In this document: positions 4,397 to 27,879 of the stretch, one piece after another
Layout: the number at the start of each line of letters is the position of its first letter
How positions within the stretch are numbered: position 1 is the first letter of the stretch
Assembly: GCA_964409385.1 (NCBI GenBank)
Contig: CAYPCY010000001.1
Location: 106,546-170,545 of the forward strand
Source of the DNA: an uncultured Methanosarcinales archaeon
GTDB lineage: Archaea > Nanobdellota > Nanobdellia > Woesearchaeales > CAYPCY01
Direction: 5' to 3'
DNA: 64,000 nucleotides
Notes under the pieces: generated by a model
Seen by the model: the letters and a program-made list of their open reading frames with translations, nothing else
Databases searched by the model: none
What the model was told of the DNA's origin: nothing
Position numbers and translations under genes: made by a program

Positions 4397-4428
4397 AGAT
4401 TTTGAACTTCTGTATTCTTCGAATACAA
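4397..4428. repeat. inverted copy of the 1953..1984 hairpin element, 3' of the PAP2 gene
   Basis: agattttgaacttctgtattcttcgaatacaa; see the 1953..1984 feature. Confidence 0.6.
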
Positions 4429-4440
4429 TAAGTTATGAAA

Positions 4441-4516: not shown

Positions 4517-4574
4517 AGAAATCTCTTTGAGATTTCGTAAGTTTTTTAAATTAATTCTTTATTTTCAATTTCAC

Positions 4575-9791: not shown

Positions 9792-9928
9792 CTTGCAAGT
9801 AAGAATTTACTAGGGATTTTTAAACCTTTTGTTTCTTAAGAGTGGTTTTTTTGTATTATTACTTTAGGATGGAAAGTTTCCAGTTATTCATAACAAGTTT
9901 TTTAAATAATCAACGCCATACTATTTTT

Positions 9929-10060
9929 ATGGAAACAATTACAATTCCTAAAAAACAATTTGATGAACTAAAATCTTCAGAATCAAATATTAATCTCTTA
10001 AAACAATTAAAGGAAAGCTTGAAAGATATTAAAGAAGGAAGAATAAAAAGAGTGAGATAA
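9929..10060 (+). CDS. small hypothetical protein (43 aa from the internal ATG), convergent with the RelE/ParE-like gene
   Basis: METITIPKKQFDELKSSESNINLLKQLKESLKDIKEGRIKRVR. Its stop abuts the toxin's stop. It is not recognisably an antitoxin. Confidence 0.25.
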   Translation: METITIPKKQFDELKSSESNINLLKQLKESLKDIKEGRIKRVR

Positions 10061-10375
10061 TTATCTATTCATTAAATTTTCAAGTTCTTCTTTGAAAAGA
10101 GTTGAAAACATTCTTACATTATTTATTGTGTTTTGTTGATTTTTCTTTTCGCTAATTCCCACCATTATCACTGAGCACAATTTCTCATGTATTAAATAAT
10201 AAATTCTATATTTTCCAAATCTTTTTTCTCTAAAATTTAAAGGTCCTAGAACTTTTCCAGATTTTGGATTTAGTTTTAATTGTAGTTCTATTTTTTCTAT
10301 CCTTTCTCTTAGCTTCTTTTCACATTTCTTGAATTCTTTTTCAAATCTGAATGATCTATAAACTTTAAAAATCAT
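10061..10375 (-). CDS. RelE/ParE-family type II toxin-like protein (no co-directional antitoxin ORF found)
   Basis: ...KKCEKKLRERIEKIELQLKLNPKSGKVLGPL...RFGKYRIYYLIHEKLCSVIMVGISEKKNQ matches the ParE/RelE pattern (l..nP..G..L.g.l....R.G.YRiiY.i.......V.il.i.hRk). Confidence 0.6.
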   Translation of the reverse strand: MIFKVYRSFRFEKEFKKCEKKLRERIEKIELQLKLNPKSGKVLGPLNFREKRFGKYRIYYLIHEKLCSVIMVGISEKKNQQNTINNVRMFSTLFKEELENLMNR

Positions 10376-10458: not shown

Positions 10459-11091
10459 ATGACCGTAATATTAATTTCTGGACCTCAAGCTTCCGGAAAG
10501 GGGACTCAAGCAGAACTTTTGGAGAAAAGACTTGGTTTTAAGCATGTTTCTATAGGTAAAATTTTAAGGGATAAAACTAAAAAAAATGATGTTTTAGGAA
10601 GACAAATTAAGGAATTAATTGATAAGGGCGAATTTGTTCCTAATGAAATAACTAATGAGATTGCATTAGAGTATATTAATAATAATGAGAAGATCATTCT
10701 TGATGGCTATCCTAGAAATAAGGAACAGGCAGAATTCTTGTCTAGAGAGTCAGATATTGATTTGATGATTGTTTTAGAAATTTTTGAGTCTTTAACTATT
10801 CAAAGAATTTCTAACAGGAGGGAATGTCCATCTTGTGGAAATGTTTATAATTTAATCACTAAACCTCCTAAAAATAATAAAACGTGCGATTGCGGGACTA
10901 ATTTGGTTTTAAGAAAGGACGATACACAAGAATATATTAAGAAAAGATTATATTCTTATCATAAAAGAACAGAACCTGTTATTAATATTTTTAAGAAGAG
11001 GAATAAGGTTGTATTCTTTGATGGGAGTAAAGATATTGAAGAAATTTATAAGGATGTTCTTTCTATTTTGAAGAAGAAGGAGCTCATTTAA
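10459..11091 (+). CDS. adk: adenylate kinase (long form with Zn-binding LID)
   Basis: P-loop GPQASGKGTQAELL, AMP-binding region, and LID with CPSCG...CDCG zinc knuckle. Confidence 0.9.
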   Translation: MTVILISGPQASGKGTQAELLEKRLGFKHVSIGKILRDKTKKNDVLGRQIKELIDKGEFVPNEITNEIALEYINNNEKIILDGYPRNKEQAEFLSRESDIDLMIVLEIFESLTIQRISNRRECPSCGNVYNLITKPPKNNKTCDCGTNLVLRKDDTQEYIKKRLYSYHKRTEPVINIFKKRNKVVFFDGSKDIEEIYKDVLSILKKKELI

Positions 11092-14000
11092 AGTTTGCTA
11101 GTTCTTTCTTTATTTTTTCTATTTCTTTATCGTCTTTTATTTTTCTCGCATTCTTTAAATCATTAGCTAAAGAATCAAGTCTTAATTTAGTTATGTCTTT
11201 TGTTTTCTCGGAATTTTTTAATTCTTCAATTTCATCTTCTAATGTTTTTTCTTTTTTAGTTTCTTCCTTTACAACTTTCTTTTCTTCAGTTAACACTTTC
11301 TTTTCTGCAGTCCATCCGTGTACTATTGAAAATTCTGTTTCTAATTGTTCTTTCTGTTCTGGAGTTAGTGTGTCTGTATCTATAGAAACTAATATTATTC
11401 CGTCTTTGGTGCTTATTTTATCTTTCATATGATCTAGTAAGTATATTGCCCTATCAAAACTTGTATTTTTCATTATGAACAAGAATGAATCAAAGAATAC
11501 TACTGGATTGTTTTCTTTTAATATATAGTCTACAAATGCCCTGTATATTTTATCAATATCTGTCGGACTTAATGTTTCTTTTCCTTGCTCTAGTGTTATC
11601 CAATAACTCTTATCTTGAGGAATGTCTTTAAGTAATAATTCAGGATTTTCTCTTGTGAATGAAAGTATTTTTCTTCCTTCCATATTACTCTTTACTAGTT
11701 TTAACGAAATTGTGTTTTTCTTTTCTTCAACAATATATAAATTTCTAGATCTTAATTTTCTTTCTAATAATCTAGGATTGAAAATTTCATGGCCTGTTTT
11801 CTTCAAATATTCTTCTCTTTCTTTCTTAGCCTGTGCTAATTCTTTAATTAATTCTTCATCTTCTACTAGTTCTAATGGTTTTTTCTTGACTGTTTTATTA
11901 ATTCCTTTCCATAATGCTTCAACTCTTGGAAGTACACTTTCTAAATAGATTTGTACCATGTTGAAATTTCCTGATTTTAATTTTTCAGTTGCTAGATTTA
12001 CTTCTATCCTAACATCGAAAACATCTACTTTTTCTTTTTCTAATTCTTCAAGTTGATACTCTAAATCTTCTATTATTGTATTATATTTTGAATAATTTGC
12101 TAATGCTTGATCATCTAACCTTTCTATATTATGTAGTAGTGGTCTGAAGTTTACAAAGTATGCTCTTCCTTTGTTATAATCCGCATTCTCTATCATTCCA
12201 GTTCCAGTTCCTGCTTTTATTAAACTCTGCATTATATCAATTCCATATTTTGTTTTTATTCTTTCTAGATCTCCTTCATCTTTAGTTTTCATTTGTATTT
12301 CTGTACTTATGTTTGCTTTTATTTCTCCTATAAAATCACTTAATACTTGACTTATTAGTACTAGACCAACTCCCCATTTCCTAAATTCTCTCGCTCCCCT
12401 TTCTATTTGTAAGAATCCTGCACCACTACCTCCAAATTTAGGTAGTAGTCTGTGAACTTCGTCATATATCATTAATAGTTTTAGTTCTGGACTTTCTGGT
12501 AGGTTTTCTCTGAAGACTTGTCTTATGGTGTTTGCTACGAATAAGTCTACATCTTTTTGACTTAACTTGTTAATTACAAAAACATGAATTTCTCCTGGCT
12601 TCATGAATTTTTTAATACTTACTTTTTGTCTTGGGTTTTCTACTACATGAACATTACCATTAAATGCTCTTGCTTCATTTCTTTTCATTTGGAATTTATG
12701 GTATAATTTCAGCATTGGTTTATTTTCTGATTTTCTTAAGAATCCTGTCCATTGTGCTGTTGGATCAAATACTATAACTGCAGTATTATGCTTTAGTGCT
12801 TCTTCTGCAATATCTTGTGCGGCTACTGTTTTTCCGCCTCCAGTAGCTCCTGCTACTATAGTGTGTGTTTTCAATTTTTCTAATTCTACAAATGTTCTAA
12901 TACTGGTTTCTGCAACATTTCCTAAGAATGCTACTTTTCCTTCTGGCTTTGGTAATGCACTATAGTCAATTTGTATTTTATACCTTGACTTTTTCCTTTT
13001 CCTATACTCATAAAATTCGAACATTCCAAAGTTTAATCCTAAGAATATTATTATTCCTAGAATCACCCATACTGGAATTATTCCTGCAATCCTATAATTA
13101 TACCAGTAATCAGATACTAATACTGTGGCTAGACTAGTAGCTGTCATGTTAAATCCTGTTCCTGAAGGATAAGTTGCTGTTCCTCTTAATACATACCTTC
13201 CTTTAATTAAATCTTCAGGAATTTTTAATGTCTTTATAACGGAGATTGTTGTCTCTATAGCTATTGCTTCTTCCGCTGCTGCTAAGACTTCAAGAGTAGA
13301 TTGGTCTACAAGTTCAAGCAGCAGCTGAACATCCACTCTCTTGGACATCCCTAGGTTATAGACATCCGCCTGAATTTTCAAGGTTTTTCCGGGGGGAATC
13401 CTATCCTGTAATGGAGTTATTTTCAGATCGAGAAGCTTCTCCCTCAATTCCAAAACCCGAATTTCTACAGGGATTGAATTAACGATTGCATCTGCAAGCA
13501 TTAATACAAGGTCTCCTTGATACATTCTTGGTTTGGTCTCGTAGGGTATTGCTATTCTGATCTCTACGTCTCCTTTTTCCCCAGGCGGGATTTCTATTAT
13601 TTGATTCACTACCGTTATGAAATCAGTGATTTCTCCTGATAGTTGCACAACTAGTGCTGCTGCTTCTTGTAGACCGTTTACTATTCCTACTTTCGTATCT
13701 GTTATTTCACCAGGGTAGAGTTGTCGGGATATCCTTGCGGTATCCACTGTAAACTCACTGGTTTTTTGCATATACTTTTGTAGGAGTTCTTCTATTGCTG
13801 TGAGCGTTAAATTTCCCATGTCTGCGACTTGGGTTGAAGTTGAAGCTGTTGAAGATGTTGATACTAATGTTAGAACTTGTGTTACATTTTGGAATGCAGC
13901 ACAATCTTCTGGACTATTTTGGAAACTTTCTCCAAGACTTATTGTACATATTCCGTCTCCTATTACAAATCCTGCCGCTGCATGTTCTGTTAGTACATAT

Positions 14001-17000
14001 GCTGAGAATCCTGTTGTGTTTGCAGTGATTTTATTATTGGTTTGGTCTAATGTTGTATTTATTGAAGTCCATCCTGATTGACAAGCATCATCTATTGATG
14101 ACCAGTTTGTACATTTTGCAACTACTAGTCTTGAAGGATCGTTAACTAGTGAAGTGTCATAATCGAATTCTATACTTATATTATTGGTTAAACTAATATT
14201 TCCTGCTATTCCTGCATGGTTTATTCCTGTTCCTGCTATTGAGAATGCTGTAGTGTTTAGTTTTTCTAGTATGAAATTTTCATTTAATTGTGAAGCATTT
14301 ACATTTATGAAATTCACTATGAAATTGTTGAAGTTGAAACTTGTTTTTGAGAATGTCCTGTCTGGAATTGTTGCGGTATAATCACCGTCAGAATCTAAGG
14401 TTATGTTTGTTCCTTTAGTATCTCCAGTCCATCTGTAAAGGGTTAATTCTGCATTTGATGAAGTTCCATTAAAGTCTTTTACACTTCCTGTTATACTTCT
14501 TGTATTGAAGACTTCAAATAATTCTGATGTGTTTCTTGTATTTCCTAAACTGTCTACTAAATTGTAGCTTATGTTATAATCGTTTTCTGTTGTTATTGTT
14601 AGTGTATTTGTTAGTAGACTTCCAGATACTGAATTTGTTACTTCCCTTTCAGTATATGGAGATACTGTCTCGTAAACTTTTGCATTTGTTGATGATCCTA
14701 TTCCTGTCTCGTCTGTTAAGTAGGTTTTTAGCGTTATTGATCCTGGCGTGAATGAGTCTGTATAGTTTACTATTGTTGGTCCAAAAACGTCAAGGTATGT
14801 TACTGTACTATAATCGTAAGCGTGACTAGTGTCATATACTGCTTTTAATGTGAAGTTTTTAGTTAAATCTCCTGTTGTTATTGTTGGCGCGGTGCATTGT
14901 ACCGTTTCTGAAGTTCCTGATGTTACTTGGCAAGTACTTCCGTCAATGTATACTTTGAAACTTTCCAAGGTTCCACTTCCTTCTGTTGCAGTGGTTATGT
15001 TTATTGTATCTCCTGATTTTATTCCTGTGGATGGTGAGATAGTTAATATTTTAGTGTGTGAAGTAACATTAATGTATGCTGCGAAGTTTTTATCATAACT
15101 CAAGTTTATTGCGTAAGTGTAAAAATTTTTTGTGTCTGGTGCTGTATAATTTATGCTTATTAGGTTGGTAGTATTACTTGATACTGTTGTATTAGTTGGT
15201 AATTCTAGGTTTGTTGTTATGTTAAGGAATAATTCTGTATTTCCAATATTTGTTATGTTTAGATATCCTATAACTCCTTGAACTTGACTTCCTACAGTTA
15301 CTCTATCATTCGTTAATGATGCATTGTATGATTTGTCTTCTGGTACTGTTACGGTTAGTAAGACTTGTTGGTCTGCATCGTTGCTTGTTATTTTTAATGA
15401 TCCTATGTATGTTCCTGCAGGGTAATGTTTTGGCACTGTAATATTTACATCCATGTATCTTGTTGATCCTGCTGGTATTTGTGTGTAGTAGATAGTGTCT
15501 ATTGTGAAATTATTACATACTGTTCCTGAAACACATGTTGCTAATACTCCAACAAGTGGAAATGTTCCAGTACTTTGTACTGTTAATTGTTTTGAGACTG
15601 TTTGTGAATGATTTATTGTGTATGTTAAAGTTGTAGTGTCTAGTGTTAATTCTGCAAGGCTTGATTCTGGCTGTTGTGCTAGTACGAATGATCTATTTCC
15701 GTTTGCGAAAGTGTCAAATGTTGATGTTATTCTTTTGTTCACCTTGTCTATTGTTGTTGTTAGTGCGTTCCAGTCTTGTAAACAGTTTTTGCCTGTTACA
15801 TTCCATGAATTACACTGGTATATTCTTAGGTCGTCTTCTATTGCTATATCGCTCATGAATGAGTTGTATTCTTTTATTACTGTTCCATTACTTGAGAAAT
15901 TATTTTCGAATGATATTCCTGTTATTGATCCTTGTAGTTGTCCTGCTGTTTCACTTCCTAATAAAGTATCTACTGTTAGAAAATTTGATGGTACTTTTCT
16001 AAAGTCTGCCTCGTTTATTGTAAAGTTAAATCCTTCTATTTGTATTTTTGTGATGTATTGTCTTTTTGGAATTGTGAAATTATAATGTCCTGTGGAGTTT
16101 GTTGAATTTTCTAGATAGAAGTTTTTTACAGTATTATTGATTGAAAAATTTGCTAGTAGTGGATTGTTGTTTTGGTCTATTAATTGTCCTTGGAATGTCC
16201 CGTTTTGTCTAACTTCAAAATATCCAGTTCCTGTTCCTGTATTATTTTCTGAATCTGTCGCGTATACTGTTACTTGGAATAGTCCTACTCCATCGTATAC
16301 TGTGGATGCTATTGTTCCTGTATAAATATCAGTTCCTGCTGCTGATAAGTCATCATTATGTGTTCCTCCCCCAAATAATTCTACACTGAAGTTTACTGTG
16401 GTTATTGCATTATTATCTGTTGCATTTACTGTAATGTTAATGTCTGTTCCTGAATCAACATCTGTTAGGTTTATTAGGTTTACTACTGGAACTGTTACAT
16501 CTTTGTAGAATACTGCATTTGTTGTTTCTTTAGTTACTGTAACGTCCGATCCTGAAATGGTATAATTAGCTATTATCTTTAGTGTGTGGTTTACTGCGTC
16601 TGTTGTTGATGGCGCGTAACATTCTAGAGTTGTATTGCTTGTAGTATCGTCAGTAGTGAATATTGTGCATTCAGTATTGTTTATGTATGCCTTATAAGTC
16701 GTATTTGTTGAAATATGATTTGTGTCTGTCCATGTTAGTTTTACTGTTGTATTTATTTGATCGCCTGAAACTACTTTTTCAGGAGCTTCTATTTTTAGAA
16801 TGTTTAGTATTAGTTTTAAGACTCTGAAATTGAAGTTTATTGTTTCATTAACTCCTGTTTCTGTATTATTCACAAATATTGTTCCATTGTAGAGTGTATT
16901 ATCATCTGGAGTTGTATAGTTTAGTTGTATACTTCTTGATTCTTGTTTTTGTATTGTTAATGAAGTGTTTAGATTGGTTGTTATTTGAGATACGTTTCCT

Positions 17001-20000
17001 GAAATATTAGTTGTGAAGTTTAATTCAGTATTTCCTAAATTGTTAATTATTAAATCTGTTATTGTTCCTGTTTCATTTGCTTGTCTGGAAACATTTAATT
17101 CATTAGTTGATAAATTCCATGAATTGTCTGTTAGCACATTTGCTGATGAACTTTCTGTCTTGTCATTAACATTATTTGCTCCTGTGAAGTTTATGTTGTA
17201 GGAGTAACTTCCTGGAGTTTGCCCTAGTGTTGTATTAAATCTTACGAATATTGTTTGGGTTTGTCCTTTTGTTATTTCTGTTAATGATGTTGTGAAGTCT
17301 AGACTGTTTGAGTAGACAGTATTATTTTTTGATAGTTCTATTGTTGTATTTTCTGGTGGTGAATCTACAGTTATTAATAATTGAGTATTATCATTTCCTA
17401 ATGCTGTTATTGTAAAGTTTGTAATGTTTAATTGTCCGTGAGTTACATTATATACTGTTGAGAAGTTGTTTATTGTGTAGTAATGGTTTTCTTCAATTAG
17501 TAGTGTTCCTGTGGTTGATGATTCCGAACCATTAGTTCCGTCAGTATTCGTAAAGTTTGCAATGAATCTTACTCCGTTAGTGTATAGTCCAACACTCTTT
17601 TTTGGAATTTCTATTGTTAAGTTTGTTTGTTTTGTTGCTCCTACACTAATATTCCCTAGGAAATTTCCTGTCACATTCCAGTCTTCAATAGTTCCTGTTA
17701 GATTAACATTATAAGCTGTTGCATATCCTGAATTTGTAATATTTACTGGGAATGTTATGTTCTCTCCCCATAAGTTAGTTACATTGTTTGCATTAACTTG
17801 TGATGATGCAAAGCTTAATGTTGTGTTTCCATGAACCATGAAGTATTCTGTGGTATTACCATTCTTTCCTGAAGTATCGTATACTTGGAAGTATACACTA
17901 TGATTTCCTGTCTTGTTTGTTTCATAGGTTAGATTGAATAATTCTGCATCTTCATATCCTGATGATTCCGGCCAGTTTACAAATTGTCCATAATAATTTG
18001 TTCCGTTAATTGTCCAGTTTCTTTCTGTTTCATTAACATTCACATCATCTTGGACTATTGCTTCAAAAGTTATATTCTTGCCTAGTTCAACATTACTTGT
18101 TTCTACCCCATTAACTAGTTTTTTGAAGCTAGTAATTACTGGTTCAGTATCTGTAACGTTGAAGAACATGAATGCAATATTTGAGGATGGAGATGCTGTA
18201 TTGTTTGAAATGTTTATTTGAACTCCTGATTCGTAATTCGATATATATCCATTAGGGTCTAAAACCCATACTTTTAGATTATAAGTTGAATTTTTATCTA
18301 CATAAACACTTGTTGGATTATATAATTCTAAAGATTCAGTATGATTTTCAGTAATACAATTAATAGAACTACATGAGTCCAAACCAGGAATATTATCATA
18401 TGAAATTGTGAAATTTAAAGGAATATTACCAATATTTTTTATTGTTAGATTTGCTAAGTTTCCTTCTTGATTTAGATTGAATACTTTTGATTGATTATAT
18501 GCTGGTGTGAAATACCATGTGGAGTTTGTAGGTACTTCTATTGATATATTTACTATTTGTGAATCTACATTATCAGTACTTACATTAATAATGCTCGAAT
18601 AATTTCCTGGACTTAAGAATTCTGGCAATGTAATATTTATTGGTATTACTTGCTTATTATTTTCTGTCAGGTTAAATATTGAATTGTTAAAACTTACCCA
18701 TGATTCGTTCAGTGTTTGTTCAATAAATGTTGTGTTCACATTTACTAATTTTGCATTTCCAACACTACTAATATTCATTAAATACTCAATGCTTGAGTTT
18801 CTTGATTGGACTGCTGAAATATTATGTGTTGTCATTAATGGATTAATTATTATTGTTATGTTTATGCTATCATTAAGTCCTTCAGTTGTTGTTATGTTAA
18901 TAAAGCCAGTATAAGTTCCATTAGTGAAATTTGTTACTGTAACATTAACTTCTAAGTCTGCGGCAAATCCGTCTTGTAATGGGTCCCATTCATTAAGGGT
19001 GGGATTCCAAGATGTAAAAGAACTGTTGAACTTAAACCAGGAACTATTAATTTCAGTAACATTTAGTTTTACATGATTTAAATCTTTATTTCCTGTACTG
19101 TTTACAATATAATTGAATATTTTGCTTGAACTAATATTAGTATTATGTAATAATGTGTGATTGTCTAGTTCCATTACTGGATTTCCAGTTATTGTTAGTG
19201 AAGAAGTTGTTATTATGTAAGCTTCAGTAGTGTCATTATTAGTCCAGTTAGCCCCCCATGTGAAAGTGTAGGAGAATACTTGAGCAGAATCACTTATTGT
19301 AATATTCATTCTAACAGTACAATTTTTATTAGGATATACGATTGAATCACAATTATCAAGTCTTTGTACAGAATCAATAATATTAGGAGTGTCTGAATCA
19401 TATATTAACGAATCATGCATTAATCCAAAACCAGTATTGTTTAATGTTGCATTAACTATGTAATTATAAGTACTTCCTGAAGAATAATCTGTTATTGTAA
19501 CGTCAGGAACAATTAATTCTGCTGTTGTTACAGCATCGTAAATTGTTAAGTTTACATTATTGCTTACTGTTGTATTTCTTGTATCATTTGCTGTGAAGTT
19601 TACTAGTCTTGTTCCGTAAAAGTTTGTGTCTGGTGTTATTGTTATTACTTTTGTAATATTATTTATGTTATAGCTTAAGTTAGTTGCGGGTGTTATAGTA
19701 TAATTAATATCATCCTCGTCCAAGTCTGAGAAATAATCTGATAGGGTGAGTGTTAAATCATTATTTTCAAACCAGGATTGGTTTGGTATTGTAGTATCTT
19801 GACTTGGTGGAGTGTTTAATACTGTAATATTCTGTTCTCTTATTACTGAAATGTTTTCTGTATCATTAGCGTATGTTCTTACTCTTATTGTATCATGAGC
19901 GTCTGTTATTTGAATAGTGTAATTGTTTCTTGAATAATCTGATCCAGTTCCTGTTATGTAAAGATTATCGATTGTGAATCCGTCTACTGTAGTATCTCCA

Positions 20001-23000
20001 GTAATTGCTGCATCATCATATTTGGTTATTGCCCAACCGTATGCTTTACCATCTCCGCCGCATTGATTATTTGCATTTTGTGAGATATTATATGTTTTGT
20101 AATACCAAACTCCATTATTTGAGGCTGATATATCTATATTTTCGACTAGTTTGTATTTATTATCACTGCATTTTACAAATACTCCGTCACAATCAGTAAT
20201 ATTGTTTATATTATCGTATGAAGCAGTGCATGAGTTTGATTCTTCTCCATGATCTTTTATATAAAAACTTAATTTAATATCATTATAGTCACTTATTGAA
20301 TTATTATTCCAGTAAAGAATATTATGATGATACTCATTAGGAGTACCAGCCATGTCCATTCTTAATTGGTAATTTCCTTTGAAAGGTTCTCCACAATATT
20401 TACCACCTGACTGACAACTTTCATTATCTACAATACCTACAACACCTGTATAATTAGATAAATTGCTAAATTGTGAATTCATCACTCCAGATTCAAATCC
20501 AGTACTGAATATTACATTCAACTCTTCAGAATCATTCAGATTATAAAACTTGAAAATGAAGTTGAAACTATCCCCATCTGCATCTGTAGTGTTTGCCGAA
20601 GCATTCAGTGTTTGTAATACGTAAATTGGTTCTGTCAGGTTTAATGTTGGCTGTTCTGGTGGTTTGTTCAGTATTGTTATTGTTTCATTCATCCAATCTC
20701 CCGAATAAGTATCGTTTGCCATGCATGAAAATGTCCAGTTTTGATACTTTTTGGCAATGTTTGCAGTTAGATTCTGAACATTAATTTCAACTGCTGTCGA
20801 GAATGAACTTCTACTTCCTGAACTGTAAGTTACTGATTCATTATACCATTTCCAATTATAAGTTATCAAATCACTATCTGGATCTGCACTCGTATTACAA
20901 TAACCTAATAAAATATCATCAGTATATGCTGTTGTTGGAGTTATTCTTACAGTTGTAACGTTTGGAATGTCTAACCATTTGAAACTTGTTGAGTTTTTCC
21001 AATAGCTCTCTACTGTAGTATTTGCATTACATGAGAAAGTCCAATTTTTGTGTATTGAAGAATCCGTAGTTACATTATTAATATTAACTTCTATTCCTTC
21101 AGTGTATGAACTTGTTGTTCCTGACTCGTTAAGAACACCATCCGCATACCATTTCCAAGAGTAGGATATGGGATTTCCTTCTGGTTCTGTTGCGTTACAG
21201 TATCCCTTAAGAATTTTTTGAGAATAAGTGGTTGGTATTATTTCTACTGTTCTAACTATTGGGAATGATGTGTTAAAGAAAGAACCCGCATCTCCTTCTT
21301 CCGCATTTCCAGATGCTACATATCCTCCAGCAGTATCAATAGTTCCTGTAAAACTATAATTATTTGAATAAGAAATCAGTATTCTTCCTCCTGCCCCTCC
21401 TCCTCCATCAAAACTTGTAGAACCACTAGCTCCTCCCTTAACACTAATAAGTCCAGCGCCCGTAATTAAACTAGTCTTAATACTTATTCCGCCACCACTT
21501 CCTCCGCCACCATAAGTTCCCAAAGAACTCCCACCACCGCTACAAGTAGTACTACTAAGATACGATGAACCTCCACCTATAGAAGTTATATTTCCTGTTA
21601 AATTTAGAGTATTTTTAACTTCTAATATTAATAAACCCCCTCCATCACCACCATCACCACTATTCTCGTCATTACAAGTTCCAAAACAAGATGATGCTCC
21701 TCCACTTCCTAAGAAAGTAACATTAGTTTCTGAACCGTAAGGTTCTCCCCTGTATGAGGTGGGACAACTCCATCTATTTCCTGAAAAATTTCCATATTCA
21801 CATCTTCCTCCAAACCCTCCAAAACCACCTCCTGACCCTCCTGAACACCTGCTGGGTAAACTATATTGTTCTCCTCCTCCATCATCAGATCCATTAAGCA
21901 CTCCTCTCCCATCATCCTCAATAGTACCTCCATAGTATCCTTTCCCATCAATATTTATTTCTCCTGAAGAAGTAATTGTAAGATTTTCTGCAGTAATATC
22001 TAACCAGTATGTCTTATTTCCATCTTTTGCTTCATTAATTGATAATCCATCATTTGAAGAATGAGTTAAACTTCCTGTTATTGTCAAGTCTTGTAGAACT
22101 TCTAATTTTCCATTATAAGTTATACTTCCATTCACTATTGCATCATTATTAACTATTAATGTTCCATTATTATTTACAGTTCCTGTAGATAGATTTAACG
22201 AATTAGTTGTTATAGTATTTCCTTCCTGAATATTTAATGTTCCACTACTTAATAATATACTATTAAGAGTAACATTGTCAGAGAGTGTTTCAGTAAGTCC
22301 ATCTTCAATTACCAGATTAGGCGACCTAAAACTCCCTTTAAGTCCATCACCCGCACTGCCCGGTCCTGTTCCTCCTGAAACATTTGTTTGCCCCGTAAAA
22401 CCCGAAATATTAACATCAAGATTAACTTTAATTCTTCCACCTCCACCACCACCACCATTATGACTACCTTCTATATCTTCACCCCCATCCCCTCCTACTG
22501 AAGTAATATTTCCTATACCTCCAAGAATACTGGTATTAATTGAAATTGTCCCTCCAGACCCACCTCCAGAACCATCAAACAGGTAGGAAGAAGTTCCTGT
22601 TAAACCTTCAGTTCCATCTGCTAAAATCTGTCCATTAATAGTTAAATTGTCAAGAATATTTAATATTACTAATCCTCCTCCAATTCCAGTATTATTTTCG
22701 CTTTGATTTCTTCCATCTCCAGAGCCACCTCCAGAACCTAAATCTGCAGGATTGGAAACACTTCCATAAGTAATCCCCTCATTATTTTCATCATAATATC
22801 CTTCTCCTCCTTGTCCACCATAACCACCACCACCACCACCTTCACCTATTGATTCTCCACCACCACCAAGACCATAACCAGTTCCATTATCTTCTGAATG
22901 ATCCCCTCCAGAATATCCCTTTCCAGAAACATTAATTAAACCTCCAGATTCAATTGTTAAGTTAGTAGCATTAATTTCTAGCCAATAATTTTTCACACTA

Positions 23001-26000
23001 TTAAAAGCATCTATTCTGTTCATATCTGAATTAGTTGAGTGAGTTAAACTACCACCAGACTGAACTATTAAATTATTAAATTCATAACTCCCATTCCATA
23101 TTTTTGCAGTAGTAATATAACAAGTAGTAAATTGATTTCCTGAATCACAACTGTTTTCATTAATAGTAATATTATTAGATTCGATAGAATAAACATCTTC
23201 AGAACCAATGCTTGCTGTGGAAACAACAGCCCACATTTCTGCTCTATCAGATTCTGAACTTGATAATTCTAAATTTTTATTTTGAAATAATAAGCTTATT
23301 TGCTCTGGTGATAATGCTCTTTTGTAGATCATTACTTCGTCTAATGTTCCGTTGAAGTAACTTCCTGTACTATTACTTCCTATTGTCATATTTTCTGAAG
23401 TTGGAATTAAATTTGATGAAGTTGTTGATCCTTGATATGTTCCATCTACATAAAGACTTAGGTTGGAATTTGTGAACGTTCCTGTTATTAAATGCCAGTT
23501 TTTATCGTTTAAATTTCCTGAATAAGTAACATTATCATATCCTAATCTTATTTCTCCTCCATTAATAGTGTTCAAATTCAAACTACTTACATCCTGAGAA
23601 GTTAGATTAATATTATCTATTGCTCGTCCATCACTAGAGCAAGGAAAATCGTCTTTTTGCGAAAATTTAATAGAGAAAGAAGAATTGGTTGTTCCTCCAC
23701 ATTGCTCAGTGATGTTATTTGTTAAATCAAAATCATAATTTGTATAAGTATTATCATTTGCAAGATCTGTTATTTTATACCAATAACTTCCATCACATGT
23801 AAAAAATACTCCGTCACAATTTGCAAACAATCCTGAATGACTAGAACAACTATCTTCTTCATCATCTCCAGAATCATCAATATGATAAAAATTAAAAGTT
23901 AAATTTGATATTCCTGCTAAAGAGAAGTTTGTTTTTACAGTATTATTAACTAGATTACTGTTTGATGTACTTCTTAATATTAGATGATTTGAACCTGCAT
24001 ATGGACTACCACAATCAGAATTAGAAGAAACATCAACATCACCATATGAATTGCTTGAACTTACAGTCCAATTTGATGAAATACTTCCTGATTCCCAGTC
24101 TTCAAAGAACTTTAGAGAATTAATTTCTTCTTTTCCAATCTTCATTATTACTCCTTCACTACTAGCGTTTATCCATGCTGATAAAGTAATGTCATTAGAT
24201 AAATTAGAAACATTCTCTAATTCAATATAATCATCAACTCCATCAAAAATATAAGCTCCTCCCTTGTAACCAGAAGAAGTCCAATTAGGACTATTTGATA
24301 AACTTCCACTTCCTAATGTTCCATTATTTCCATAGCTTGAATAATCCTTAACTATAGTTTCATAATCAGTATCGAAAGGATAATTAAGAACTGCTATTGA
24401 ATTACCATCAATTCTCCAGTCTGTAATGTTAGTGTACGCTAATCCTAAAGGATTATATGTTTCGTTAATATGAGATGTTAAATTATCAGTTGTAAAATTA
24501 TATGCTGATGTTGAATTCAGTAAGACAGTAAAATTTAATGCTTGTGTAACACTAATAATATTAGATAATGCGCTTGCTTCTTGGTCAGTATCTGTAGAAG
24601 TTACCATTACAGTCCAGTTCTCTTCAGTATTAATTTCTTCACCAATTATTTTTTCTAGAGAATGATTATTAAAACCTGCAAGGTATAACTCATTAATCTG
24701 ATCTGCAGACAATATTCTATCATAAACACTTATTTCATCTATACTTCCATTCCATTCAGATGATCCAATATTATCATCTGATCTTCCTATTTGAATATTA
24801 TTTTGAGGAACAGATAATCCACTTGATGTTGTTTTCGAACTCATATATTCTTTATTTCCATTTAGAAATAATGATCCAATTCCAGTATTATTTTTTAGTG
24901 TTAATGCAAAATGATACCACGTTCCTGCAGATAACGGTGTTGTTGAAAATGTAGTTATAGAACCTGTACCATCCTCTAATCTCATTGATGCCTTAATTTT
25001 TACTATTCCTGTATTATTCAATATTTGCAAATACCATCCTTTAAGTAGTGATGTGTTATATTGTTCTATGATAAAATTATCAGATGCTCCGACACTACCT
25101 TCATAATTCATCCAACCAACAATAGTTAATTCTGTTGTCAGATTTAAACTTTCATTATATGGTATTGTTAAGTAATCATCAATTCCATCAAAAGAATAAC
25201 ATCCTCCCACTTTACAATTATCAGTCCATACTGGTCCAGTCACTGTTCCATCATTATCATAAGTGGAATAATCCTTAATACTACTTGAAGAATTAGTGTC
25301 GAATGGCATGTTCAATACGGCTATTGAAGTTCCATTAATTCTCCAATCTGTAATATTAATTATTGACTTATCATTAGTATGTGAAGAATTTATTTTTACA
25401 GTAAGATTATCAACACTAGTATTATAACTACTTGAAGAATTCAAGAATACACTATTAACAACAGGAATATTTAATTTTACTTGTACAGTATTACTTAATA
25501 ATTGAGCTTCATTCTCTGTATCTGTAGCAGTTAGCATAACACTCCAATTCTCTTCAGCCCTAGTTTCATTATGAACTATCTTCTCTAAAGAATGATTATT
25601 AAAGCCAGCAAGATAAATCTCATTAATTTGATCAGTGGTTAATACTCTATTAAAAAATAAGAATTTGTCTATCAAACCTTCAAACTGATATCCTATTTTT
25701 ACATCTGCTATAGGATTTATAGTGGCATCATTACCATCACAATACTCAAAAGAAATAGTAGTTAGTTGACCATCAAAATATACGTTATTACCATCACATC
25801 CTACTGTAATATGTGGTAATTCAGTAGTTACTGCTATAAAATGCCAATCAGTATCATTATTTGTTGAATGTACTGAATACTGCCCACCAACTCCAGTACC
25901 ATCGTAAGAATCAATAACTATATTATCAGTTTCAATTTGTATACTATATCTGTCTGAACTTCCTGTATAGTGATACCATGCATATCCTACATTTGCTTCA

Positions 26001-26740
26001 GTTGATCTTTTATACCAGAATGTTATAGTATTACTCCCATAAATTAAAGAGTCATTATCAGATATGTTAATTTCAGAATTAGAACCATCAAAAAGAAATG
26101 CACCACCAACTTTTCCTGAAGAACTCCAAGTGGCACCGCCTTCAATCCCATCATTACCATAAGTGGAATAATCATTAACCGTACTTGAATTAACATCAAA
26201 AGGCATGTTCAATACAGCTATTGAAGTTCCTTCTACCCTCCAGTCTGTAATATTGTAAACAGTATCTCCACCAATATCACTGGTTGAATAACTTATTGTC
26301 AAGTTGGAAATATTAGTTGGATTAAGAGGCGTTAAATCAACAGAATTTATCGTTGGTGTTGCTTGTGAAGTAAACACTTCCTTGTCAATAACATCTCCTG
26401 TTTCAAAGGTTCCTCCTGAACTGCTTCCTCCAGAATCGGGTGTTTGATCATTAGTTCCTGATCTTGTTTCTGGAGGGGGTTCTTCCTCTTCAGGTTCTCT
26501 ACTAGGTTGTTTCTCAATTGGTTTTTCTATAATATCTCCTTCTTTAGGAGTTTCTTTTGGAGATGCTGGTTTTTCTGTATAGTCTGGAGTTCCTGGTTTT
26601 TCTACAGGGTCTGTAAATCCAAAATCGTCAGTAACTACTGCTGCAAATCCTGTTGGAGAAGGTTGTAAAACTAATGAAAATAAGAAAGTGATTACTATAA
26701 AGAGCACTAGTTCTAAAACTCTATGATTCCCCCGTTTCAT
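11084..26740 (-). CDS. giant (5218 aa) secreted surface protein with a C-terminal single TM helix and a cytoplasmic HerA/FtsK-type (DUF87-like) P-loop ATPase tail
   Basis: N-terminal signal peptide (MKRGNHRVLELVLFIVITFLFSLVLQ) and a Pro/Glu-rich linker. At least 3 LamG/ConA-like lectin modules show the recurring DDYIxL...LDEVxIYxRxLSxxQIxxLY pattern. Two Gly-rich beta-helix-like modules carry GGGGxxGGGG runs. Hundreds of N-x-S/T sequons are present. The TM helix is YRIAGIIPVWVILGIIIFLGLNFGMF. The ~640-aa tail has Walker A THTIVAGATGGGKTVAA, Walker B LLMIYDEVHRLL, an REFRKWGVGLVLISQ arginine-finger box as in HerA/VirB4, and a coiled-coil plus an alpha/beta domain of unknown function. Confidence 0.85.
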   Translation of the reverse strand: MKRGNHRVLELVLFIVITFLFSLVLQPSPTGFAAVVTDDFGFTDPVEKPGTPDYTEKPASPKETPKEGDIIEKPIEKQPSREPEEEEPPPETRSGTNDQTPDSGGSSSGGTFETGDVIDKEVFTSQATPTINSVDLTPLNPTNISNLTISYSTSDIGGDTVYNITDWRVEGTSIAVLNMPFDVNSSTVNDYSTYGNDGIEGGATWSSSGKVGGAFLFDGSNSEINISDNDSLIYGSNTITFWYKRSTEANVGYAWYHYTGSSDRYSIQIETDNIVIDSYDGTGVGGQYSVHSTNNDTDWHFIAVTTELPHITVGCDGNNVYFDGQLTTISFEYCDGNDATINPIADVKIGYQFEGLIDKFLFFNRVLTTDQINEIYLAGFNNHSLEKIVHNETRAEENWSVMLTATDTENEAQLLSNTVQVKLNIPVVNSVFLNSSSSYNTSVDNLTVKINSSHTNDKSIINITDWRINGTSIAVLNMPFDTNSSSSIKDYSTYDNDGTVTGPVWTDNCKVGGCYSFDGIDDYLTIPYNESLNLTTELTIVGWMNYEGSVGASDNFIIEQYNTSLLKGWYLQILNNTGIVKIKASMRLEDGTGSITTFSTTPLSAGTWYHFALTLKNNTGIGSLFLNGNKEYMSSKTTSSGLSVPQNNIQIGRSDDNIGSSEWNGSIDEISVYDRILSADQINELYLAGFNNHSLEKIIGEEINTEENWTVMVTSTDTDQEASALSNIISVTQALNFTVLLNSTSAYNFTTDNLTSHINETYNPLGLAYTNITDWRIDGNSIAVLNYPFDTDYETIVKDYSSYGNNGTLGSGSLSNSPNWTSSGYKGGAYIFDGVDDYIELENVSNLSNDITLSAWINASSEGVIMKIGKEEINSLKFFEDWESGSISSNWTVSSSNSYGDVDVSSNSDCGSPYAGSNHLILRSTSNSNLVNNTVKTNFSLAGISNLTFNFYHIDDSGDDEEDSCSSHSGLFANCDGVFFTCDGSYWYKITDLANDNTYTNYDFDLTNNITEQCGGTTNSSFSIKFSQKDDFPCSSDGRAIDNINLTSQDVSSLNLNTINGGEIRLGYDNVTYSGNLNDKNWHLITGTFTNSNLSLYVDGTYQGSTTSSNLIPTSENMTIGSNSTGSYFNGTLDEVMIYKRALSPEQISLLFQNKNLELSSSESDRAEMWAVVSTASIGSEDVYSIESNNITINENSCDSGNQFTTCYITTAKIWNGSYEFNNLIVQSGGSLTHSTNSDMNRIDAFNSVKNYWLEINATNLTIESGGLINVSGKGYSGGDHSEDNGTGYGLGGGGESIGEGGGGGGYGGQGGEGYYDENNEGITYGSVSNPADLGSGGGSGDGRNQSENNTGIGGGLVILNILDNLTINGQILADGTEGLTGTSSYLFDGSGGGSGGTISINTSILGGIGNITSVGGDGGEDIEGSHNGGGGGGGRIKVNLDVNISGFTGQTNVSGGTGPGSAGDGLKGSFRSPNLVIEDGLTETLSDNVTLNSILLSSGTLNIQEGNTITTNSLNLSTGTVNNNGTLIVNNDAIVNGSITYNGKLEVLQDLTITGSLTHSSNDGLSINEAKDGNKTYWLDITAENLTITSSGEINIDGKGYYGGTIEDDGRGVLNGSDDGGGEQYSLPSRCSGGSGGGFGGFGGRCEYGNFSGNRWSCPTSYRGEPYGSETNVTFLGSGGASSCFGTCNDENSGDGGDGGGLLILEVKNTLNLTGNITSIGGGSSYLSSTTCSGGGSSLGTYGGGGSGGGISIKTSLITGAGLISVKGGASGSTSFDGGGGAGGRILISYSNNYSFTGTIDTAGGYVASGNAEEGDAGSFFNTSFPIVRTVEIIPTTYSQKILKGYCNATEPEGNPISYSWKWYADGVLNESGTTSSYTEGIEVNINNVTTDSSIHKNWTFSCNANTTVESYWKNSTSFKWLDIPNVTTVRITPTTAYTDDILLGYCNTSADPDSDLITYNWKWYNESVTYSSGSRSSFSTAVEINVQNLTANIAKKYQNWTFSCMANDTYSGDWMNETITILNKPPEQPTLNLTEPIYVLQTLNASANTTDADGDSFNFIFKFYNLNDSEELNVIFSTGFESGVMNSQFSNLSNYTGVVGIVDNESCQSGGKYCGEPFKGNYQLRMDMAGTPNEYHHNILYWNNNSISDYNDIKLSFYIKDHGEESNSCTASYDNINNITDCDGVFVKCSDNKYKLVENIDISASNNGVWYYKTYNISQNANNQCGGDGKAYGWAITKYDDAAITGDTTVDGFTIDNLYITGTGSDYSRNNYTIQITDAHDTIRVRTYANDTENISVIREQNITVLNTPPSQDTTIPNQSWFENNDLTLTLSDYFSDLDEDDINYTITPATNLSYNINNITKVITITPDTNFYGTRLVNFTANDTRNTTVSNNVNLTIYDAVTTAELIVPDVTITDYSSGSTYNYIVNATLNNTGFGLMHDSLIYDSDTPNIIDSVQRLDNCDSIVYPNKNCTVRMNITISDSAQVFSYTFTWGANWTNNDTTEAYIITTSSLTITGNPVMELDNHTLLHNTNISSSKIFNYIVNSTGNKDLNHVKLNVTEINSSWFKFNSSFTSWNPTLNEWDPLQDGFAADLEVNVTVTNFTNGTYTGFINITTTEGLNDSINITIIINPLMTTHNISAVQSRNSSIEYLMNISSVGNAKLVNVNTTFIEQTLNESWVSFNNSIFNLTENNKQVIPINITLPEFLSPGNYSSIINVSTDNVDSQIVNISIEVPTNSTWYFTPAYNQSKVFNLNQEGNLANLTIKNIGNIPLNFTISYDNIPGLDSCSSINCITENHTESLELYNPTSVYVDKNSTYNLKVWVLDPNGYISNYESGVQINISNNTASPSSNIAFMFFNVTDTEPVITSFKKLVNGVETSNVELGKNITFEAIVQDDVNVNETERNWTINGTNYYGQFVNWPESSGYEDAELFNLTYETNKTGNHSVYFQVYDTSGKNGNTTEYFMVHGNTTLSFASSQVNANNVTNLWGENITFPVNITNSGYATAYNVNLTGTIEDWNVTGNFLGNISVGATKQTNLTIEIPKKSVGLYTNGVRFIANFTNTDGTNGSESSTTGTLLIEENHYYTINNFSTVYNVTHGQLNITNFTITALGNDNTQLLITVDSPPENTTIELSKNNTVYSNSLDFTTSLTEITKGQTQTIFVRFNTTLGQTPGSYSYNINFTGANNVNDKTESSSANVLTDNSWNLSTNELNVSRQANETGTITDLIINNLGNTELNFTTNISGNVSQITTNLNTSLTIQKQESRSIQLNYTTPDDNTLYNGTIFVNNTETGVNETINFNFRVLKLILNILKIEAPEKVVSGDQINTTVKLTWTDTNHISTNTTYKAYINNTECTIFTTDDTTSNTTLECYAPSTTDAVNHTLKIIANYTISGSDVTVTKETTNAVFYKDVTVPVVNLINLTDVDSGTDINITVNATDNNAITTVNFSVELFGGGTHNDDLSAAGTDIYTGTIASTVYDGVGLFQVTVYATDSENNTGTGTGYFEVRQNGTFQGQLIDQNNNPLLANFSINNTVKNFYLENSTNSTGHYNFTIPKRQYITKIQIEGFNFTINEADFRKVPSNFLTVDTLLGSETAGQLQGSITGISFENNFSSNGTVIKEYNSFMSDIAIEDDLRIYQCNSWNVTGKNCLQDWNALTTTIDKVNKRITSTFDTFANGNRSFVLAQQPESSLAELTLDTTTLTYTINHSQTVSKQLTVQSTGTFPLVGVLATCVSGTVCNNFTIDTIYYTQIPAGSTRYMDVNITVPKHYPAGTYIGSLKITSNDADQQVLLTVTVPEDKSYNASLTNDRVTVGSQVQGVIGYLNITNIGNTELFLNITTNLELPTNTTVSSNTTNLISINYTAPDTKNFYTYAINLSYDKNFAAYINVTSHTKILTISPSTGIKSGDTINITTATEGSGTLESFKVYIDGSTCQVTSGTSETVQCTAPTITTGDLTKNFTLKAVYDTSHAYDYSTVTYLDVFGPTIVNYTDSFTPGSITLKTYLTDETGIGSSTNAKVYETVSPYTEREVTNSVSGSLLTNTLTITTENDYNISYNLVDSLGNTRNTSELFEVFNTRSITGSVKDFNGTSSNAELTLYRWTGDTKGTNITLDSDGDYTATIPDRTFSKTSFNFNNFIVNFINVNASQLNENFILEKLNTTAFSIAGTGINHAGIAGNISLTNNISIEFDYDTSLVNDPSRLVVAKCTNWSSIDDACQSGWTSINTTLDQTNNKITANTTGFSAYVLTEHAAAGFVIGDGICTISLGESFQNSPEDCAAFQNVTQVLTLVSTSSTASTSTQVADMGNLTLTAIEELLQKYMQKTSEFTVDTARISRQLYPGEITDTKVGIVNGLQEAAALVVQLSGEITDFITVVNQIIEIPPGEKGDVEIRIAIPYETKPRMYQGDLVLMLADAIVNSIPVEIRVLELREKLLDLKITPLQDRIPPGKTLKIQADVYNLGMSKRVDVQLLLELVDQSTLEVLAAAEEAIAIETTISVIKTLKIPEDLIKGRYVLRGTATYPSGTGFNMTATSLATVLVSDYWYNYRIAGIIPVWVILGIIIFLGLNFGMFEFYEYRKRKKSRYKIQIDYSALPKPEGKVAFLGNVAETSIRTFVELEKLKTHTIVAGATGGGKTVAAQDIAEEALKHNTAVIVFDPTAQWTGFLRKSENKPMLKLYHKFQMKRNEARAFNGNVHVVENPRQKVSIKKFMKPGEIHVFVINKLSQKDVDLFVANTIRQVFRENLPESPELKLLMIYDEVHRLLPKFGGSGAGFLQIERGAREFRKWGVGLVLISQVLSDFIGEIKANISTEIQMKTKDEGDLERIKTKYGIDIMQSLIKAGTGTGMIENADYNKGRAYFVNFRPLLHNIERLDDQALANYSKYNTIIEDLEYQLEELEKEKVDVFDVRIEVNLATEKLKSGNFNMVQIYLESVLPRVEALWKGINKTVKKKPLELVEDEELIKELAQAKKEREEYLKKTGHEIFNPRLLERKLRSRNLYIVEEKKNTISLKLVKSNMEGRKILSFTRENPELLLKDIPQDKSYWITLEQGKETLSPTDIDKIYRAFVDYILKENNPVVFFDSFLFIMKNTSFDRAIYLLDHMKDKISTKDGIILVSIDTDTLTPEQKEQLETEFSIVHGWTAEKKVLTEEKKVVKEETKKEKTLEDEIEELKNSEKTKDITKLRLDSLANDLKNARKIKDDKEIEKIKKELANFK

Positions 26741-26844: not shown

Positions 26845-27879
26845 ATGAAAAAACTTCCCAAGCCAAAAAAACCTAAGGGTTACAAAGAAAAAAAAGCAGT
26901 TAAAGAAATTAAATTCAAGGCTAAACCTCCTAAAAAGTCTGGTTTAATGCCTGGTTTTATGAAGGATCCTTCTGATTTAGAAACTGTAAGGGAGAGTTTA
27001 GGACTTAAGAAAAAACCTGAAGGACTTAAAAAATTAAGAGAAGTATTAGAACCTCCAAAAGAGTCTGATCCTTTAGAAACTTATGCTGATGATATTCTTG
27101 CCATGGAAGATTTTGAAATTCCAAAACTAAAGTCTGAAAAGACATTAATGGACAAAACAATATCACAAATAAGTATTAAGAAAGAATTATTGAAATTAAG
27201 AAGAGAAAAAAGACAATTACAGGAGGAACAACAACAAATTAAGGAAATTCTTGTTAAAACTACAGAAAGAAAAAGCAAGCCAGTAATTTCTGATGTTTAT
27301 AATGAGGTTAAGAAGACATTAAACAAACTAAAAAGTAAGTCTGAAAAACTTAAAGAAAAAGAAAGAATTCTCTTTCATAAATTCAAAAAGTTAATGCTTG
27401 CTGGAAAAACTATTGAACAAGCCAACTTAAGTATTAATGAAAGATTTGCTAAAATTAGGGAACTTCAAGAACAGGTAGAATCTCATGAAGTCAAGATAGA
27501 ATCAGTTACTTCTTTCAATTCATTAAATGCTTTCATTAAAGATATTGATTTTTATTTAACAGCCGTAAAAAATAGAAAATCAAAACTAAAAATTAATTCA
27601 GAATTCATAGAAAAAGAACAACAATTTCATAGGTTTTTAAAGAACAGAATAATAAACAAAAAAAGTCTTAATGCTAGTTTAACTAGAGAAGTTCAAGGGT
27701 TAGAAAAAGTCGAAATTTATAATTTAATAGATGAAACTTTTACTTTATTAAGAAAAGAACAAATAGAAGATGCAAGAAATAATTATAAATTAATTAGAAA
27801 GAAATATTCTGAATCTAATATTAAAAATCCTGAAATTTACGATTCAATATATTCACTTTACGAAACTATAACTTCTTAA
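26845..27879 (+). CDS. Lys-rich coiled-coil protein, function unknown
   Basis: 344 aa. The N-terminus MKKLPKPKKPKGYKEKKAVKEIKFKAKPPKK is extremely basic, followed by long heptad-like Lys/Glu segments. Confidence 0.5.
   Translation: MKKLPKPKKPKGYKEKKAVKEIKFKAKPPKKSGLMPGFMKDPSDLETVRESLGLKKKPEGLKKLREVLEPPKESDPLETYADDILAMEDFEIPKLKSEKTLMDKTISQISIKKELLKLRREKRQLQEEQQQIKEILVKTTERKSKPVISDVYNEVKKTLNKLKSKSEKLKEKERILFHKFKKLMLAGKTIEQANLSINERFAKIRELQEQVESHEVKIESVTSFNSLNAFIKDIDFYLTAVKNRKSKLKINSEFIEKEQQFHRFLKNRIINKKSLNASLTREVQGLEKVEIYNLIDETFTLLRKEQIEDARNNYKLIRKKYSESNIKNPEIYDSIYSLYETITS

Follow-up and report, generated by a model that had tools for sequence, protein, structure and literature searches.

The locus and its giant surface protein

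The DNA analysed here is a 64-kb window of contig CAYPCY010000001.1 (NCBI GenBank assembly GCA_964409385.1, positions 106,546 to 170,545, forward strand) from an uncultured archaeon of the tiny, symbiotic-type DPANN group, placed in the Woesearchaeales, and positions given below without a locus name are those of this window. On its reverse strand lies the gene of a giant protein of 5,218 amino acids (aa), and our subject is the last ~650 residues of that protein (11084-13040, -), in which an ATPase of the HerA/FtsK type is joined to a domain of the family DUF835, an inactivated relative of KaiC. The features of the giant gene are as follows.

11084..26740 (-): giant open reading frame (ORF), 5,218 aa, with signal/anchor, glycosylated ectodomain rich in laminin-G (LamG) domains, one transmembrane helix and cytoplasmic tail
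13154..13756 (-): membrane-proximal pair of beta-sandwich ectodomains, residues ~4329-4529 (phmmer, tblastn)
13010..13081 (-): transmembrane helix, residues 4554-4577, a hydrophobic stretch followed by the basic cluster RKRKKSRYK
12110..13009 (-): ATPase core of the HerA/FtsK superfamily (DUF87), residues 4578-4877 (Pfam, AlphaFold2 (AF2), Foldseek)
12827..12850 (-): Walker A motif GATGGGKT, residues 4631-4638, its G, G, G and K invariant in 87 sequences
12446..12472 (-): Walker B region MIYDEVHRL, residues 4757-4765, D4760 and H4763 invariant and E4761 nearly so in the same 87 sequences
11786..12109 (-): family-conserved helical module, residues 4877-4902, 4908-4922 and 4926-4946, and a lysine/glutamate (K/E) helix, residues 4961-4982 (DSSP on the AF2 model)
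11318..11749 (-): DUF835, an inactivated KaiC-like alpha/beta domain, residues ~4998-5141 (Pfam, AF2, Foldseek, family profile)
11087..11317 (-): K/E-rich C-terminal tail, residues 5142-5218, 25% K and 17% E, with three modelled helices
11087..11248 (-): last 54 residues, 5165-5218, a weak match to a C-terminal helical motif (profile scores)

The giant gene is a single unbroken ORF whose reading frame is intact over 15.6 kb. The protein starts with a basic N-terminus and a hydrophobic signal/anchor, continues with an ectodomain of ~4,500 residues that is rich in N, S, T and G and has Pfam matches to Laminin_G_3 (160 bits), NPCBM_assoc and Ig-like domains, and ends in the tail. N-X-S/T sequons are unevenly distributed along it: the ectodomain holds 234 against 113 expected from composition, and the tail 4 against 3.2. 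Because of this asymmetry, the ectodomain is placed outside the cell, followed by one transmembrane helix and a cytoplasmic tail of 641 residues; that is, the protein has type-I topology. The ectodomain pair next to the membrane is common to two families of shorter proteins introduced below, the short ATPases and the ectodomain-transmembrane-DUF835 proteins, as seen with phmmer and tblastn. It matches P0123, P0128, P0196, P0125 and P0146 in a local phmmer search (E 6e-14 to 4e-7) and is also found by tblastn in loci L005 and L006.

The tail had been described in a first-pass annotation, made from the sequence alone, as a cytoplasmic chain of an ATPase, a helical segment, an alpha/beta domain and a charged helical end. 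This order holds, and all the sequence strings quoted in that annotation lie at the places it gave. The cytoplasmic location is in keeping with the sequon asymmetry and with the transmembrane helix and its basic cluster, and the composition and modelled helices of residues 5142-5218 bear out the charged helical end. The nature of two of the modules turned out to be different, as described in the following sections.

The ATPase and its helical module

The ATPase is of the HerA/FtsK kind, as had been proposed. Its core exceeds the Pfam cutoffs for DUF87 (35.6 bits; cutoff 23.2) and HerA_C (30.6 bits; cutoff 22). The AF2 model, built on the alignment of 87 homologs, reaches a predicted local distance difference test score (pLDDT) of 91.6 and a predicted template modelling score (pTM) of 0.90. 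Its best fold matches in the PDB are hexameric HerA translocases (Foldseek E 7e-11), and further matches are the conjugative coupling protein TcpA (1.6e-8), the packaging ATPase B204 of STIV2 (8e-8) and FtsK (1e-7). Walker B reads IYDE at residues 4758-4761. Positions invariant in the 87 aligned sequences include G4631, G4634, G4636, K4637, D4760, R4784, R4787, S4797 and Q4798, the two arginines and the ISQ motif being invariant or nearly so among the homologs. With its catalytic motifs intact as far as the sequence tells, the ATPase is apparently catalytically competent.

The likeness to solved HerA structures (4d2i, 8woc, 8xau) extends to the best fold match, the Walker A and B motifs, the conserved arginines and the 'ISQ' motif. 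However, unlike the DNA-translocase and anti-phage HerA proteins, the ATPase of the giant is membrane-anchored and has no HAS-barrel. HerA in the strict sense was considered and rejected, since the N-terminal HAS-barrel is missing and the core begins ~50 residues past the transmembrane helix. The NCBIfam HerA equivalogs score 17-21 bits against a cutoff of 800, and no gene for a NurA, Sir2 or DUF4297 partner is present among the neighbouring genes.

The segment that follows the core had been read as a Lys/Glu coiled coil. It does not appear to be a generic charged coil: at pLDDT ~96, AF2 models three helices (26, 15 and 21 residues long) with short turns between them, followed by a K/E helix of 22 residues, and, judging from the helix lengths, the turns and the high pTM, the three helices probably pack as a bundle. 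Homology to the ATPase family continues past the core, with 45-59% identity over residues 4878-4950, and fades near residue 4980. Because this identity extends across the membrane-anchored DUF87 ATPases of DPANN archaea, the helical segment belongs to the ATPase family; what had been taken for a first 'coiled coil' consists of a helical module conserved in that family and a charged linker helix.

The DUF835 domain

The alpha/beta domain after the helical module, which the first-pass annotation could not place in a named family, is a member of DUF835 (PF05763). The Pfam match is far above threshold (76 bits, cutoff 33.1, E 3.1e-21), covers profile positions 5-136 of 136 and has its envelope at residues 5009-5137, that is, 11330-11716. 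In the AF2 model of the terminal part, pLDDT is 86 overall and above 90 within DUF835. The model and an alignment of 36 relatives agree on the boundaries of the domain, from the strand NLYIVE (5000-5005) to ~5141, with the helix 5010-5018 included. The existence of a separate alpha/beta domain was thus correctly recognized, and its start was placed too late, as it begins ~25 residues before the ILSFT from which it had been drawn.

The domain has a RecA/KaiC-type fold according to the model. Its Foldseek matches are BcsE, FlaH/ArlH (4yds, 4wia), KaiC, PH0250, Psy3-Csm2, Rho and RadA/DMC1, with E 1e-4 to 3e-3 and TM-scores of ~0.4-0.47 for a query that includes the helical tail. The top match is the N-terminal domain of BcsE from the cellulose secretion complex of E. 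coli (9fp0, 9fnn; E 1e-4). BcsE is a degenerate ATPase-like regulatory part of a membrane secretion machine in this domain; but with 9-11% identity, a TM-score of ~0.4, a bacterial source and an unrelated context, it offers a fold resemblance only. When PDB sequences are searched with the DUF835 family profile, FlaH (4yds) is found at E 2.5e-4, and the family's 'vvlldgleyL' aligns on the FlaH Walker B 'FIVIDSLSIL', so that FlaH/ArlH is the closest solved relative of DUF835 by profile. A single-sequence PDB search with the terminal part gave noise only (a capping enzyme, E 0.7), and the NCBIfam ArlH/FlaH models match here at 19-21 bits against cutoffs of 194-215.

The domain lacks the nucleotide-binding loop of its active relatives. 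No GK[ST] or GxxxxGK[ST] P-loop occurs in the giant's copy or in the corresponding segment of 37 aligned DUF835 proteins, and a Walker A pattern search on full-length DUF835 sequences finds a match in only 5 of 149 representatives. In place of GxxxxGK[ST], the beta1-alpha1 loop of the giant's copy reads EEKKNTIS, a position mapped by the order of strands and helices in the model together with an hhalign alignment (weak, probability 7%). The motif 'TR.NP' was considered as a degenerate P-loop and rejected, because it sits after beta2 and the P-loop position is the earlier EEKKNTIS loop. The family residues kept in the giant's copy are Y5002, E5006, R5030, P5033, W5047, P5059 and the Walker-B-like D5084.

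DUF835 has been described as 'iKaiC', an inactivated-KaiC output domain of archaeal response regulators with the architecture REC-DUF835 (Galperin et al. 2018, PMC5847659). The giant's copy shares the Pfam family and its motifs (Y, TR.NP, W-L-T, P-T, hhhhD, K-D) with the REC-DUF835 and stand-alone proteins of Methanomicrobia and Thermoplasmata. However, these proteins are only 20-30% identical to it and contain neither an ATPase nor a giant ectodomain; the giant's copy, unlike them, lacks the Gly and Glu of 'DGxE' and is followed by 81 more residues. The suggestion that the terminal domain is a regulatory or partner-binding module agrees with the iKaiC literature and with the missing P-loop. 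Its supposed restriction to this system has to be given up: 471 cluster representatives match DUF835 at E<=1e-3 in an exhaustive search of representatives. Most of them are stand-alone, REC-linked or cytoplasmic ends of membrane proteins. Among the 149 best representatives, DUF835 lies <=25 residues from the C-terminus in 126; transmembrane segments are predicted upstream of it in 53 (a receptor-like layout), and the rest are soluble. DUF835 is a widespread archaeal domain, and not a ubiquitous housekeeping family devoid of a link to ATPases.

The charged C-terminal tail

The helices of the K/E-rich tail lie within residues 5145-5217 and are modelled at pLDDT 55-84. A profile of the C-terminal motif built only from ATPase-family members scores 29-42 bits against the C-termini of the ectodomain-transmembrane-DUF835 proteins and 19.9 bits against the giant's tail, a score reached by 1 of 2000 composition-preserving shuffles. 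With a combined profile the tail scores 22.5 bits, which none of 2000 shuffles reaches. These scores are suggestive of membership of the giant's tail in a C-terminal motif found both in part of the ATPase family and in the ectodomain-transmembrane-DUF835 proteins.

Relatives and the fusion

Three architectures combine the modules of the tail. In family A, the best homologs of the tail are proteins of ~775 aa, which are 55-63% identical to it from the transmembrane helix through the helical module and come mainly from metagenome-assembled genomes of Woese-, Pace- and Nanoarchaeota, with one fragment from Aenigmarchaeota. Their layout is signal, two beta-sandwich ectodomains, transmembrane helix, ATPase, helical module and a variable end. 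This end is a 'KNDFADW' module with weak DUF5752 matches in 88 of 122 members and a K/E spacer with the C-terminal motif in at least 10 of the 122, and some members carry tetratricopeptide (TPR) repeats. Family B consists of the ectodomain pair, the transmembrane helix, DUF835, a small 'HGW' segment and the C-terminal motif. In architecture C, to which the giant belongs, a giant ectodomain, the ectodomain pair, the transmembrane helix, the ATPase, the helical module and DUF835 follow one another, sometimes with a tail. The closest DUF835 relatives of the giant's copy are found in other HerA-DUF835 fusions and in family B.

The second full example of architecture C is P0188 (MBI3033592.1, Ca. 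Woesearchaeota, 3,933 aa), which runs from LamG domains through the transmembrane helix to DUF87 and DUF835 and is 45% identical to the giant over 737 aa; its gene is internal to a 28-kb contig. In both complete cases, then, DUF835 goes with a giant form of the ATPase protein. The fragments P0016 and P0122 carry the same junction, and a linker motif, H-x-x-F-[ND], is kept in 3 of the 4 HerA-DUF835 junctions. Contigs from two other metagenome samples (L001 and L002) are 99.9% identical to the window and have the same junction. The HerA-DUF835 fusion is genuine but rare.

Both of these contigs end at window position 13385, inside the giant gene, and the shared break suggests that ectodomain-coding repeats or strain variation defeated short-read assembly there.

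Other combinations of the same modules also occur. DUF835 is fused to STAND/AAA_16 with TPR repeats and to a DnaA-like AAA+ domain (P0143; P0193), and the C-terminus of the ATPase family is found with TPR repeats in P0017, P0073 and P0075; both modules have evidently been widely shuffled. Searches aimed at further relatives gave little: a word-indexed search with the last 234 aa returned one near-identical TARA fragment only, and a scan of genome contigs for family B returned two loci only, neither near an ATPase gene.

Comparison with SPEARE proteins

The giant protein resembles the SPEARE proteins of Nanohaloarchaeota, which carry one or more laminin-G domains, are up to 8,553 aa long and lie mostly outside the cytoplasm (Hamm et al. 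2019, PMC6642349). Their transmembrane helix lies near the C-terminus and their most conserved part is intracellular; this part matches the 'type III restriction enzyme' family PF04851 (ResIII), PF01935 (DUF87) and P-loop families and models on HerA 4d2i, and short versions of 655-717 aa as well as similar sequences in Woesearchaeota and other DPANN were noted (PMC6642349). The intracellular part was later re-read as a VirB4/TraG-like ATPase with a coiled-coil tip, and a role in secretion was proposed (La Cono et al. 2023, PMC10266531). The features in common with the giant are the signal peptide, the LamG/Ig-like ectodomain, PF10633, one C-proximal transmembrane helix, a cytoplasmic P-loop domain of the DUF87/ResIII type and a helical tip. 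By this Pfam set and layout the giant can be regarded as SPEARE-like, the comparison with NAR1_1133, AOV94740.1 and SVXNc_0300 being by description only. The difference is in the tail: the SPEARE protein of Ca. Nha. antarcticus has only ~100 residues past its P-loop domain, and there is no mention of a DUF835 or KaiC-like domain in SPEARE proteins in PMC6642349, its supplement or PMC10266531. The giant class had thus been described before; what is new here is the DUF835 module on a SPEARE-type protein and the shuffling of modules among architectures A, B and C.

SPEARE-type giants are leading candidates for the attachment of DPANN archaea to their hosts and for the exploitation of these hosts. 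The HerA-DUF835 fusion provides a concrete link in which a membrane motor of the HerA type would have an inactivated KaiC-like module as its partner. It also suggests further candidate partners, namely KaiC-like ATPases, the family B proteins and the conserved coiled-coil neighbour described below.

A probable role of DUF835 on the motor

We consider that DUF835 is probably not a catalyst but a regulator or adaptor, of which one copy is tethered to each ATPase domain of a SPEARE-type motor. If the ATPase hexamerises like its characterised relatives, six tethered copies of DUF835 would sit under the motor ring. The domain would neither bind nor hydrolyse nucleotide in the canonical way. It would work by contacting other proteins, and could form a second, regulatory ring or offer a docking site to the coiled-coil neighbour, to a response regulator or to a KaiC-like ATPase. 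It would in this manner gate, or report on, the activity of a motor that serves the giant ectodomain. As for its origin, the domain looks like the cytoplasmic part of a family B protein that came to lie, in a member of the ATPase family, after the helical module and before the C-terminal motif.

This proposal draws on analogy. In the archaellum motor, the hexameric secretion-type ATPase ArlI is bound and modulated by ArlH (FlaH), a small protein related to KaiC, and RecA-like proteins without a P-loop, such as Psy3-Csm2, act as adaptors. From ArlH on ArlI and from such degenerate adaptors, a role of the inserted DUF835 as second ring or docking site is suggested. The analogy has its limits: DUF835 has no Walker A, whereas that of ArlH is functional and ArlH binds ATP; and ArlH is not part of the same polypeptide as ArlI, which belongs to the PilB/T2SSE type, whereas the motor of the giant is of the HerA/FtsK type.

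Several observations weigh against a regulatory role on the motor. The giant's DUF835 is divergent, with 'FDSFLFI' in place of 'LDGxEYL' and the Gly and Glu gone. The fusion was found in 2 of the 120 best ATPase homologs, and a metagenome scan for more HerA-DUF835 junctions gave none, returning five loci with DUF835 only. Ranking by identity does not group the three ATPase domains that carry DUF835, each of them having nearer relatives elsewhere, and the fusion may have arisen once or several times. P0188 ends right past DUF835, so the K/E tail and the C-terminal motif are not obligatory. A KaiC-like gene lies near the P0188 gene, yet none is present in the 64-kb window, which also contains no paralogous ATPase or DUF835 gene. 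Finally, we know of no experiment on any DUF835 protein.

A bolder form of the proposal, which seems unlikely when taken as a whole, is that DUF835 is a dedicated regulatory ring of SPEARE motors that couples host contact to KaiC-type signalling, with mixed assemblies. The six tethered copies would lie stacked below the HerA-like hexamer, much as in ArlI-ArlH or in the CI and CII rings of KaiC, and short ATPases, family B proteins and giants would mix by way of the ectodomain pair, the transmembrane helix and the C-terminal motif. If this were true, the fusion would be a 'Rosetta stone' for an unrecognised cell-contact machine of DPANN archaea.

The strongest competitor to motor regulation is an output that runs in parallel with the ATPase. 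DUF835 would then act independently, as it presumably does in family B: contact at the ectodomain would alter its state, and it would pass the signal on to KaiC-like or response-regulator partners in the cytoplasm. The ATPase would have a separate task, for example translocation. That many membrane proteins without an ATPase terminate in DUF835, that family B has the same ectodomain pair and transmembrane helix without an ATPase, and that REC-DUF835 links are observed all fit such an arrangement. But independence is less economical for a domain that is covalently tied, copy for copy, to a motor that forms rings, and the linker motif is conserved in three of the four junctions. Both readings fit the present data, and we rate parallel output as a serious, if rather unlikely, alternative to regulation of the motor.

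Another possibility involves no switching: DUF835, together with the K/E helices, would do no more than fasten the tail to a cytoplasmic coiled-coil lattice. The partner in such a lattice might be the neighbour encoded close to the giant gene:

27866..28879 (-): all-helical K/E-rich protein of 337 aa, a recurrent neighbour of SPEARE-like genes and possible partner

By tblastn this protein matches L012 17897-18766 (E 8e-34) and L006 17154-17894 (E 1e-36), and the ~340-aa K/E-rich neighbour is kept at 31-34% identity in three unrelated loci (the window, L012 17909-19015 and L006 17043-18080). It has weak Pfam matches only and no sequence match in the PDB, and could be a cytoplasmic partner of the giant's tail. 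Besides this recurrence, a C-terminal helical motif common to several architectures and the ability of RecA-like domains without a P-loop to serve as adaptors (as in the fold match to Psy3-Csm2) speak for a purely structural role. It is opposed by the ATPase family, most members of which do without DUF835 and end mainly in a different C-terminal module, and by P0188, which has DUF835 and no K/E tail. We regard a mere scaffold as distinctly unlikely.

It is very improbable that DUF835 is a cryptically active KaiC/ArlH-like domain that binds nucleotide or phosphorylates itself. The RecA fold and the Walker B Asp, aligned with that of FlaH, are kept, but the P-loop is absent from the giant's domain and its aligned relatives, and the family's Glu past Walker B is lost in the giant's copy. 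An assembly or gene-calling artefact joining two neighbouring genes, which might be suspected at the join of ectodomain and ATPase as these are separate adjacent genes in related genomes, is hardly credible with an unbroken frame, and is excluded by the identical junction in the assemblies of two other samples and by the homologous architecture of P0188.

Gene neighbourhoods

The first-pass annotation had raised the question of whether this terminal domain occurs as a stand-alone gene next to HerA-like ATPases. It does so in none of the three contexts looked at: of the three stand-alone DUF835 genes, one is preceded by a REC gene and another has a KaiC-like gene 3 kb away. The KaiC-like genes (PF06745 and DUF7125) at L012 20760-21566 (-) and L010 1227-1905 (-) each have a DUF835-bearing gene at a distance of ~3 kb, the former that of P0188 and the latter a stand-alone one, which could be due to chance.

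Family A genes directly adjoin very large and variable surface-protein genes, and one family B gene follows a gene for a surface protein of 1,371 aa. In these relatives, the gene of the short membrane-anchored ATPase or of the family B protein lies directly downstream of the surface-protein gene, and the surface proteins are mutually unrelated (PKD; LVIVD/Peptidase_S8; fn3/BNR; LamG/CARDB). The giant ectodomain and ATPase in one ORF here look like a fusion of such neighbouring genes. The sets are the following.

L003 3954-7997 and 8001-10349: surface-protein gene with short ATPase or family B gene
L008 5803-9918 and 9920-11836: surface-protein gene with short ATPase or family B gene
L006 1-5778, 5780-8011, 8001-10295, 11620-16581 and 18152-end: surface-protein genes with short ATPase or family B genes

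Just downstream of short ATPase genes, and convergent with them, there is a further gene for a secreted protein of ~555 aa with a C-terminal transmembrane anchor and no Pfam match; no homolog of it occurs in the 64-kb window.

L003 10362-12032 (-), L004 5046-6716 (-) and L005 11678-13345 (-): secreted protein of ~555 aa

In the window itself, a lysine-rich and apparently helical protein of 344 aa (26845-27879, +), with no Pfam match, is encoded between the giant gene and the coiled-coil neighbour, divergent from the start of the giant gene. At the other end, an adenylate kinase gene (10459-11091, +) converges on the 3' end of the giant gene (11084, -) with an overlap of 8 bases. Antisense to the DUF835-coding region runs an ORF of 108 aa (11622-11948, +), most likely a chance ORF in AT-rich DNA. 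Just past the adenylate kinase gene, two overlapping adjacent genes for AAA_14/STAND-like ATPases (282 and 291 aa, within 8078-10375, -) adjoin a ParE-toxin-like gene (104 aa), and together these may form a defence or toxin-antitoxin islet.

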